Shown here one piece after another: positions 6,258-6,625 of a stretch of DNA of 19,869 bases. A model generated the notes under the pieces. It ran no database searches, had not been told where the DNA came from, and saw nothing but the letters and a program-made list of their open reading frames with translations. The stretch's first letter is position 1. Each line of letters begins with the position of its first letter. The stretch comes from Acinetobacter guillouiae CIP 63.46 (GTDB taxonomy: Bacteria; Pseudomonadota; Gammaproteobacteria; Pseudomonadales; Moraxellaceae): NCBI RefSeq assembly GCF_000368145.1, contig NZ_KB849283.1, positions 688,455 to 708,323 of the forward strand, in the 5' to 3' direction. The position numbers and the translations under genes are program-made.

Positions 6258-6285
6258 TATTTACATATTATACATTATACGAAAT
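6258..6285 (-). other. dif/pdif-like site A (complete copy), 6-nt central region
   Basis: Minus strand reads ATTTCGTATAA-TGTATA-ATATGTAAATA. The XerC arm equals the Acinetobacter pdif (Re27-type) XerC arm, and the central region equals E. coli dif. The XerD-type arm matches at 7/11. Confidence 0.6.
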
Positions 6286-6292
6286 GGTATAA

Positions 6293-6625
6293 TTATACCT
6301 TTGATAACTCAGGAGTTTTTTGATCTTGAGCTTTCTTTTCTTCTAACTGCAATGGCTTACCGTCACCAGTTGTCTTGTAATAAATATTGCGATCCATGGT
6401 TGATTGCTCAATCGGCAAATAAATTTCCCGACCACGATAAGACATGTAAAAATCTTTCATATGATGGTGATCTTCAATTACTTTTACGTTCTGTGAACAC
6501 GGAACCATTTTTTCTAAACCACGGTCATAACGTTCAGATTCGAAGATCAGGCGCATGTTTAGCCCTTTTTCGTTTGTTGATTGTTCAACATTTATAAGTT
6601 TTGCTTTGAAGATTAATTGAGACAT
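6293..6625 (-). CDS. gV-like ssDNA-binding protein, copy 2
   Basis: Identical to 25..357. Confidence 0.6.
   Translation of the reverse strand: MSQLIFKAKLINVEQSTNEKGLNMRLIFESERYDRGLEKMVPCSQNVKVIEDHHHMKDFYMSYRGREIYLPIEQSTMDRNIYYKTTGDGKPLQLEEKKAQDQKTPELSKV

Follow-up and report, generated by a model that had tools for sequence, protein, structure and literature searches.

A probable double-stranded Xer attachment site, beside a hairpin attP, at the module boundary of Acinetobacter inoviruses

The 19,869-nucleotide stretch of Acinetobacter guillouiae DNA analysed here, hereafter the window, carries an inovirus whose replication (R) and morphogenesis (M) blocks meet at a dif-like sequence that we call site A. 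We consider it probable that site A is a double-stranded attP-type Xer site of a large family of Acinetobacter inoviruses, where it would operate beside a hairpin attP formed by two further sites, B and C. This reading would explain the arrays formed by these prophages, the elements that consist of an R block only and the reassortment of R and M blocks. It builds on direct observations: the conservation of site A, its position, its hybrid junctions with dif, the R-only elements and the breakpoints between related phages.

Organization of the prophage array

The inovirus genes found in the window encode a Phage_CRI/G2P initiator, a gV-like protein, Zot/gI, a DUF2523 gVI-like protein, a TspB-like gIII and a coat protein. 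All main phage genes lie on the minus strand except a small repressor-like gene, which is on the plus strand (Table 1). Positions 1..2198 are 100% identical to positions 6269..8466, with a period of 6268 nt, and the identity between the two copies collapses at 2199 and at 8467. Host genes, including LysR and LrgAB, are found from 8467 onwards. The array can be written host-B'-R-A-M-X-B/C-R-A(^dif). The perfect identity of the two R copies points to their origin in recent events in which one and the same phage took part.

The window begins with the first base of contig VZOG01000030.1, which belongs to the 78-contig draft assembly of A. guillouiae CCUG 2491 (PMC13520237). This contig therefore breaks off in a second copy of site A, precisely where the centre would give way to the XerD arm. 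In A. guillouiae MSP4-18 (ASQG01), the M block forms a separate contig of 4148 nt, with overlaps of 39 nt that terminate at this same boundary in site A and at the left edge of site B. Since the two assemblies break at the same points, both must have graph branch points at sites A and B. A Logan contig closes as a 6268-nt cycle. The copy of site A at the start of the window is predicted to continue as the host XerD arm TTATGTTAAAT, forming a regenerated dif that we denote A^dif. A search for the R end of the window joined to a perfect dif recovered other R types only.

Two features of the region were set aside. A 120-aa 'regulator' ORF (8084..8446, minus strand) is probably spurious, given its arginine-rich, low-complexity sequence, the lack of any family match and its overlap with sites B and C; the annotated gene opposite it is the 66-aa ORF of the other strand. 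The LysR-LrgAB synteny of the host could not be used as a locus marker because it is not conserved between species.

Table 1. Features of the window, with their positions, strands and the basis on which they were assigned.
Feature	Position	Strand	Basis or remark
Site A, XerC arm ATTTCGTATAA	6285..6275	-	sequence match
Site A, centre TGTATA, 6 nt	6274..6269	-	sequence match
Site A, degenerate XerD arm ATATGTAAATA	6268..6258	-	7/11 vs TTATGTTAAAT
Second copy of site A XerC arm and centre	1..17	-	stops at contig end
Conserved flank AATCAATAACTTAG, adjoining the degenerate XerD arm	6244..6257	-	column conservation in relatives
14-bp perfect palindrome GGTATAATTATACC	6286..6299, again 18..31		overlaps TAA stop (6295..6293) of gV-like ORF
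29-aa C2HC zinc-finger-like ORF MTQSIYKCKKCGCVLQDQNLYFIHFYNCK, first gene after site A	6143..6232	-	ORF and homologues
R block, copy 1	25..1927	-	100% identical to copy 2
R block, copy 2	6293..8195	-	gene content, Pfam
gV-like gene	6293..6625	-	R block copy 2
gII / Phage_CRI initiator	6636..7877	-	R block copy 2
66-aa repressor-like gene, divergent	7995..8195	+	R block copy 2
M block and region X	2199..6257	-	gene content
Region X, holding a 59-aa ORF	2199..2800	-	between M genes and phage-phage junction
gI/Zot	2801..3988	-	M block
gVI	3998..4273	-	M block
gIII	4266..5579	-	M block
gVIII	5692..5931	-	M block
65-aa ORF	5934..6131	-	M block
Forked-hairpin attP region B/C, CTXphi-like (candidate)	8332..8466	-	sequence and single-strand DNA fold
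Site B: ATTTCGCATAA (8466..8456), 13-nt centre, TTATGTTACTT (8442..8432)	8466..8432	-	
Site C: AAGTCGCATAA-TGCGGAT-TGATGTTAAAT, 7-nt centre	8332..8360	+	71 nt from site B, inverted
B/C hairpin region, copy 1	2064..2198	-	phage-phage junction 2198/2199

Site A resembles dif in its XerC arm and centre

Read on the minus strand from 6285 to 6258, site A is ATTTCGTATAA-TGTATA-ATATGTAAATA. Its XerC arm and centre are identical to the Acinetobacter chromosomal dif at 17 of 17 positions, and its XerD-type arm agrees with the consensus TTATGTTAAAT at 7 of 11. The innermost T of the latter arm is replaced by A. This substitution breaks the ATAA-centre-TTAT motif, which has been reported to be essential in Xer sites (10.1101/2024.04.09.588662), and it yields a TATAAT hexamer. 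Site A variants found in relatives (ATATGTTAAAA) suggest that the XerD arm of the window resembles a canonical arm in which the innermost T has become A and one T has been deleted.

The published dif of A. baumannii is TGTTCGTATAA TGTATA TTATGTTAAAT (PMC10132070). A preliminary description of this DNA had equated the XerC arm of site A with that of Acinetobacter plasmid pdif sites, in agreement with the literature: ATTTCGTATAA is identical to the arms given for Acinetobacter pdif sites and for the dif of A. indicus (PMC10132070). The centre TGTATA is shared with the Acinetobacter chromosomal dif (PMC10132070) and with all dif hybrids that carry gV ends or X ends.

The 17-mer ATTTCGTATAATGTATA, which comprises the XerC arm and the centre, has two exact occurrences in the window, at 1..17 and 6269..6285. 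When up to 3 mismatches were allowed, the only additional matches were the two copies of site B, ATTTCGCATAATGTAAC. This gives 4 matches where 0.20 were expected, a number attained in none of 200 shuffles. The sequence confirms the arms, the centre and the 7/11 XerD-type match first proposed for site A, and the shuffles show that the match of XerC arm and centre exceeds chance. A consensus scan of the coding strand at site A found neither a promoter nor a terminator. The single-strand fold of the site is not significant (z = -0.65), which rules out a second hairpin attP at this position.

Site A is conserved in otherwise divergent phages

Comparison of the 6268-nt unit with 50,697 phage records at the DNA level returned a sole match of 48 nt, 95.8% identical, which covers site A of Acinetobacter phage M02. 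The proteins of M02 are only 24-45% identical to those encoded in the window. Site A occupies the same place in M02, between the gV-like gene and the next gene, and the M02 record also contains the same gV end joined to ACTTCGTATAA-TGTATA-TTATGTTAAAT and then to non-phage DNA.

The exact 26-mer TTCGTATAATGTATAATATGTAAATA was found in 56 IMG/VR viral contigs. In all 56 it follows the stop codon of a gV-like gene at a distance of about 20 nt; the reading frame of this gene ends in SK-x-stop. The R blocks upstream of it fall into at least 26 DNA clusters, and site A occurs with two unrelated initiator families, Phage_CRI and Rep_trans. We also considered 27 Moraxellaceae loci that were gathered through gII only and are hence unbiased for site A; 12 of them carry site A, a close variant or a dif hybrid directly after gV. 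Two circular records, pANC7912.4 (6373 bp) and pAb-D10a-a_4 (6619 bp), contain B/C as well as site A between gV and the next gene. Deposited as small plasmids, they are evidently phage replicative forms. The presence of site A in these circular records shows that it belongs to the phage genome and is not merely a prophage scar. An Xer-type site at the gV/morphogenesis junction, as first suggested from the window alone, is thus borne out by its conservation both in relatives (the 56 contigs and the 12 gII-selected loci) and in circular phage records.

Hybrid junctions between site A and dif

In several genomes the gV end, the XerC arm and TGTATA are followed by TTATGTTAAAT and by host DNA. Such hybrids were located at L001:5927, L005:2070, L059:851, L089:8636, L095:18406, L097:11995, L098:11459 and L099:1610, and also in L135 and L136. 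Those of L001, L089, L095, L097 and L098 are complete equivalents of the A^dif predicted for positions 1..17 of the window. As judged from the sequences of these junctions, site A and dif swap partners at the boundary between the XerC arm with centre and the XerD arm.

L095, a 333-kb contig of A. bouvetii, contains a complete array, host-B'-C-R-A-M-X-B-C-R-(A/dif hybrid)-host, and so reproduces the architecture of the window together with the end that is missing from the window. An attP-like site accompanied by a regenerated dif beside host DNA is complete in L095 and was also seen in L001, L005 and L059; in the window, the contig ends before the dif side is complete. The junction between host DNA and attL(A) that is expected for integration into a naive dif was found in none of the 56 contigs, in all of which the left flank is a gV end. 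Site A may thus act mainly beside a resident R block, or in deletion and excision, and not in primary integration.

Sites B and C form a putative hairpin attP

Across sites B and C, the phage (+) strand is predicted to fold into a forked hairpin whose arms pair while its centre stays open (single-strand fold z = -7.3). Six further R types, taken from other Moraxellaceae and mainly from Acinetobacter, showed the same B/C pairing, with z values from -7 to -11.5. The host junction 8466/8467 coincides with the outer edge of the XerC arm of site B. The left junction retains the phage centre, host DNA being followed at 8466 by ATTTCGCATAA-TGTAAC. At the right junctions of L037, L047 and L063, the X end and the XerC arm of site B are followed by TGTATA and a perfect XerD arm TTATGTTAAAT. 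The junctions carry the signature of an XerC-only exchange, with the phage centre on the left, the target centre on the right and no need for homology between centres. At these junctions, the switch between site B and dif-type sites falls where the XerC arm meets the centre. Sites B and C thus show the properties of a CTXphi-type hairpin attP as far as these can be assessed in silico.

Plasmid pC9_1 contains a phage array in a plasmid Xer site whose centre is TAGAGA. This array ends in a B hybrid, in which the X end and the XerC arm of site B are followed by TAGAGA and a perfect XerD arm. It does not end in an A hybrid, in keeping with a need for centre homology at site A but not at the hairpin.

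R blocks combine with different M blocks and also occur alone

Sites A and B are in direct orientation and split the 6268-nt genome into the R block and the M block. When the 1.5-kb stretches to the left and right of site A were clustered for 49 contigs, R and M clusters proved to combine freely: M1 is found with R1 and R4, M2 with R3 and R5, and M7 with R15 and R21. L020 and L025 are 100% identical from base 0 of the 26-mer to +3994 (3995 nt) and have no similarity upstream; L010 and L055 show the same breakpoint pattern. Conversely, the window and L026 have R ends in common, from the exact left edge of site B to A+85, and differ in their M blocks. These pairs bear out the module exchange at site A that the preliminary description had envisaged, including one M block joined at this site to different R blocks (as in L020 and L025) and the R ends of the window with another M block (L026).

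Breakpoints were defined as the internal ends of segments at least 95% identical, and their counts do not represent independent events. Of 121 internal breakpoints, 24 fall within -100..+200 of site A, 14 in the upstream B/C region and about 21 in the downstream X/B region. Further clusters lie inside M at about +400, +800 and +1800, which indicates that site A is not the sole mosaic boundary.

The R block alone, of roughly 2.2-2.7 kb, was found at dif in A. higginsii, A. johnsonii and Acinetobacter sp. MD2; the search for a solitary 2.2-kb block in relatives, suggested at the outset, was thus successful in three species. These R-only elements are bounded by B' and by an A/dif hybrid, with ordinary chromosomal genes directly on both sides. 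No Zot, gIII or gVI gene was found within 18-21 kb of the R-only elements of L097, L089 and L098. In L067 and L136, two different R blocks stand in tandem without M, and those of L067 are joined through an A-arm/B-centre hybrid. Whether alone or with different M blocks, R recurs as a unit delimited by B and A, not by C and A.

A model for the two-site system

From the sequences of sites and junctions we infer how XerC and XerD would bind and act on site A, in which order strands would be exchanged and in which order the array of the window would have been built. Host XerC/XerD would recombine site A with an active dif. The product would have an attP-like site A on the phage-proximal side and, on the host side, a perfect dif (A^dif) that joins the XerC arm of the phage, through TGTATA, to the XerD arm of the host. 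The single-stranded B/C hairpin, upstream of the replication genes, would allow integration by XerC-only exchange without centre homology. As with CTXphi, this hairpin route would be irreversible and would accept different centres. Exchange through site A would, as with TLCphi, require homologous centres and could in principle be reversed. Loss driven by FtsK would be limited by the crippled XerD arm of site A, as has been proposed for TLCphi and for the gonococcal island (PMC9226527).

The array of the window could have been built by integration of a phage through B/C, followed by recombination between site A and the terminal dif, which would remove M-X and leave an R-only element with an A/dif hybrid, and then by integration of a full circle through site A. 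Alternatively, a tandem could have formed and then undergone partial deletion. Once established, the order R-A-M-X-B/C-R could permit Xer excision of a complete circle, by recombination of A with A/dif. It could also permit rolling-circle production of the full genome from one origin to the next, which is how full genomes are made from CTX/RS1 arrays.

Alternative explanations

It is extremely improbable that the conservation of site A reflects some non-Xer role, for instance as a promoter, terminator, origin or packaging signal, and that its likeness to dif is accidental. The T-to-A change does create a TATAAT hexamer, and a 13-nt flank is conserved beside the site, but the scan of the coding strand and the fold of the site gave no sign of a promoter, a terminator or a hairpin, and exact hybrids with the host XerD arm and host flank exist in many genomes. 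The occurrence of site A with R blocks that have unrelated initiators speaks against an origin. A Xer function of a different kind was put forward in the preliminary description, in which R, bracketed by the inverted sites A and C, moves through XerCD in the manner of a plasmid dif module. The inverted geometry is real, with the XerC arms facing inward; the XerC arm of site A equals a common pdif arm (PMC10132070), related phages are indeed found inserted in a plasmid Xer site, and cointegration followed by resolution, as modelled for plasmid Xer sites (10.1101/2024.04.09.588662), could in principle reshuffle replicons with two sites. The bracket itself did not hold, however. No junction or breakpoint was found at site C, and the left boundary of R is always site B (8466/8467, L095:9078, L097:9347, window versus L026). 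Site C has a 7-nt centre and base-pairs with B in the conserved hairpin, site A has no canonical XerD arm, and A and B are direct, not inverted, repeats. Movement of R as a pdif-type module is thus very unlikely.

Two other alternatives concern the R blocks. R could be an autonomous, RS1-like satellite that replicates as a circle of about 2.2 kb and integrates alone, in which case the R-only elements would not be deletion remnants. R holds an initiator, a gV-like gene, a repressor-like gene and the B/C hairpin, and both the R-only elements at dif in three species and the tandems of different R blocks without M in L067 and L136 would fit such a life style. We nevertheless regard it as unlikely: no free R-only circle was found in viral and plasmid collections, where the small circular records all carry M, and every R-only architecture can also be explained by integration of a complete phage and later deletion between site A and the terminal dif. 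The duplicated R of the window might instead reflect an assembly path through an R-only prophage and a free circular phage, with no array in the chromosome. This is compatible with the 100% identity of the R copies, with a 78-contig draft (PMC13520237) whose contig stops at a branch point, with the separate M contig of MSP4-18 and with the 6268-nt cycle of the Logan contig, and short-read graphs cannot separate an array from an R-only prophage plus a free circle. It is somewhat unlikely, since equivalent arrays are found inside long or finished records, namely the 333-kb contig L095 and the complete plasmid pC9_1 with its tandem arrays. Both scenarios include the branch at site A, so the reading of site A itself is unaffected.

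Comparison with known Xer-dependent elements

To our knowledge, phages that hijack Xer (IMEX) are understood almost wholly from Vibrio cholerae, where three different attP designs occur on three different elements. With site A taken as a double-stranded attP, the Acinetobacter system would, by analogy, behave like the Vibrio IMEX arrays (TLCphi/CTXphi/RS1) and not like plasmid dif modules. TLCphi carries a Phage_CRI-type initiator, and so does the window phage. The attP of TLCphi is likewise double-stranded; its XerC arm and centre are dif-like and its XerD arm is poor. After integration, the TLCphi prophage has an attP-like site at one end and a regenerated dif at the other (PMC9226527), and the hybrids described here have the same form. 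Site A thus appears to behave as a TLCphi-type attP in both its sequence and its junctions. It differs from that of TLCphi in lying inside a complete inovirus, between gV and the morphogenesis genes, and in that no homologue of XafT (DUF3653), the XerD activator encoded by TLCphi, was found among the eleven phage ORFs scanned against Pfam. Exchange of the TLCphi type would start with XerD and be independent of FtsK.

CTXphi likewise has two inverted dif-like sites that fold the (+) strand into a forked hairpin, here B/C, and obeys the same junction rule, with the phage centre on the left and the host centre on the right. Unlike the window phage, CTXphi has, as far as we know, no second double-stranded dif mimic between its replication and core modules. 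RS2 consists of a divergent repressor, an initiator and a gV-like gene, an arrangement shared by the R block of the window. Copies of RS1, which carries rstC, sit beside full prophages, as R-only copies do here. In contrast to CTX/RS1 arrays, the right end of the arrays described here is usually a site A/dif hybrid.

pdif modules rely on the same host Xer system and the same XerC arm, and they too are exchangeable blocks bounded by short Xer sites. Their sites are canonical, 28 bp long and in alternating inverted orientation on Rep_3 plasmids, whereas the A/B pair is direct and combines a hairpin site with a site whose XerD arm is degenerate. A 'one-armed' dif-like attP of 17 bp, made of one arm and the centre of dif, is known from Vibrio IMEX (PMC12715192); it belongs to another genus, and each of those elements has a single attP. 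Within Acinetobacter, the Af filamentous prophages of A. baumannii belong to the same phage group; in the passages of PMC11209303 considered here, dif/XerCD appear by analogy only and the term attP is absent. The sites, junctions and module boundaries of these phages are defined in the present analysis.

A TLCphi-like double-stranded site and a CTXphi-like hairpin would thus coexist in one 6.3-kb phage, exactly at both of its module boundaries, in a family that is widespread in Acinetobacter, including A. baumannii. Their joint use would provide a concrete mechanism for the previously noticed A. baumannii prophages with a 'replication module on both sides', and would account for R-only remnants at dif and for unrelated replication modules joined to the same assembly modules. 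It also implies that the 'chromosomal dif' sites reported for some strains are phage/host hybrids. The one array located in a plasmid Xer site links these phages to the traffic of Xer-site modules that spreads resistance genes on Acinetobacter plasmids.

Sequences adjoining site A

The 14-bp palindrome had been described as abutting site A. It does adjoin the site and overlap the gV-like stop codon, and it recurs in the first copy of R; it was rejected as a component of site A because it is present only in loci with the R type of the window and absent from other R types.

The flank on the other side, next to the degenerate XerD arm, has columns conserved at 70-100% (44 distinct contexts), compared with roughly 30-80% in more distant flanks. 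Its 13-nt motif AATCAATAACTTA is conserved as strongly as the core of site A and is kept in site A variants. This motif is unlikely to be the gII nick site, since it is common to R blocks with unrelated initiators and missing from the terminal dif hybrid. In nearly all of 68 motif-matched places, a homologue of the zinc-finger-like ORF, 29-47 aa long, starts 8-25 nt after the motif; three places are exceptions, one of which probably has no site A. Matches of this ORF to zf-C2H2 in Pfam are sub-threshold only. A strict tie between the ORF and site A is weakened by 2 of 15 relatives without site A, which carry the ORF directly after gV.

These observations raise the idea of a two-site Xer system in which site A would need a phage accessory, composed of the flank AATCAATAACTTA and the 29-47-aa C2HC peptide, with a XafT-like role as in TLCphi. 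We regard such an accessory as distinctly unlikely; if it existed, it would imply controlled excision and integration at dif and a programmed reassortment of R and M, including R-only satellites. In Alteromonadaceae prophages, a near-identical motif lies next to the XerD-like arm, with its orientation reversed with respect to the phage genes.

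Site A and the genes around it

In two IMG/VR contigs (L006 and L007), the replication block carries an initiator of the Rep_trans (RstA-type) family and not of the Phage_CRI family. The 26-nt site A, a dif-like Xer site located after the gV-like gene, and its flank are identical in these contigs to those of Phage_CRI blocks. The motif AATCAATAACTTAG is found directly beside the degenerate XerD arm in every Acinetobacter site A locus, and a near-identical motif, AACAATAACTTAG, adjoins an XerD-like arm at the prophage junction in Alteromonadaceae inoviruses, where its orientation relative to the phage genes is opposite to that of the Acinetobacter motif.

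Right after site A, the first gene in nearly all 68 matched places (3 exceptions) is an ORF of 29-47 aa whose product, as in MTQSIYKCKKCGCVLQDQNLYFIHFYNCK, shows a classical zinc-finger arrangement (CxxC-x11/12-H-x3/4-C). This ORF occurs in the window and at the site A loci L005-L060, L061, L063, L088, L095, L139 and L140. Its product is hydrophilic, unlike those of gVII/gIX, and its only Pfam matches are to zf-C2H2, all of them sub-threshold. Two relatives, L071 and L076, lack site A and yet carry the ORF.

Coordinates of the features (positions in the window unless a locus is named)
Feature	Position	Strand	Remark
Zinc-finger-pattern ORF	6143-6232	-	First gene past site A
13-14-nt motif AATCAATAACTTAG	6244-6257	-	Adjoins degenerate XerD arm of site A
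AACAATAACTTAG-type motif, Alteromonadaceae inoviruses	L130 ~6963; L133 ~15897	- (both)	
20-nt direct repeats ACATGCATGCAAATATGCAT (n=2)	7889-7908 and 7947-7966		Found again at 1621 and 1679
Divergent 66-aa ORF	7995-8195	+	phrog_5642; called gene at the 120-aa ORF locus
Sites B + C region	8332-8466 and 2064-2198		Forked hairpin on the phage (+) strand
Array sites in L137 (pC9_1)	1546, 5848, 6010, 8007, 12309		

Putative regulatory region and hairpin sites B and C

The two ACATGCATGCAAATATGCAT repeats, 58 nt apart, span the called start of gII (7877), and the second copy lies immediately ahead of the start of the repressor-like gene (7995). They are possible operators, or may form an element of the origin. 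The 120-aa ORF at 8084-8446 (minus strand), which the preliminary description had read as a regulator, is probably spurious: it is arginine-rich and of low complexity, has no family match and overlaps sites B and C. A (CCT/CGT)n tract underlies it, especially at 8280-8315. The B/C region folds into a conserved forked hairpin like that of CTXphi attP; z is -7.3 in the window and ranges from -7 to -11.5 across six further types. The host junction falls where the XerC arm of site B ends on its outer side.

Related inoviruses in plasmids and published records

On the 115-kb mobilizable A. baumannii plasmid pC9_1 (NZ_CP113443.1), a related inovirus is inserted as a tandem array in a plasmid Xer site with the centre TAGAGA. 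Plasmids of Acinetobacter can thus carry filamentous prophages; further matches were found in plasmids of A. pittii and A. lwoffii. Across 1-132 and 5850-6243, the record of Acinetobacter phage M02 (L001, OQ693633.1) repeats the gV end and includes a perfect dif, after which come ~290 nt that are probably host DNA. Deposited as a 'complete circular genome', it looks like a prophage excerpt.

The A. indicus 'chromosomal dif' in Table 5 of PMC10132070 has the left flank ctatagactg, which resembles the conserved end (...AGACTG) of the phage region X preceding site B. It may thus be that certain dif sites published as chromosomal are hybrids of phage and host.

The host part of the window encodes, at 12000-15500, a tyrosinase with a PpoB2-type copper chaperone and a multicopper oxidase. 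This stretch is unconnected with the site A finding and has a low GC content of 24-31%.
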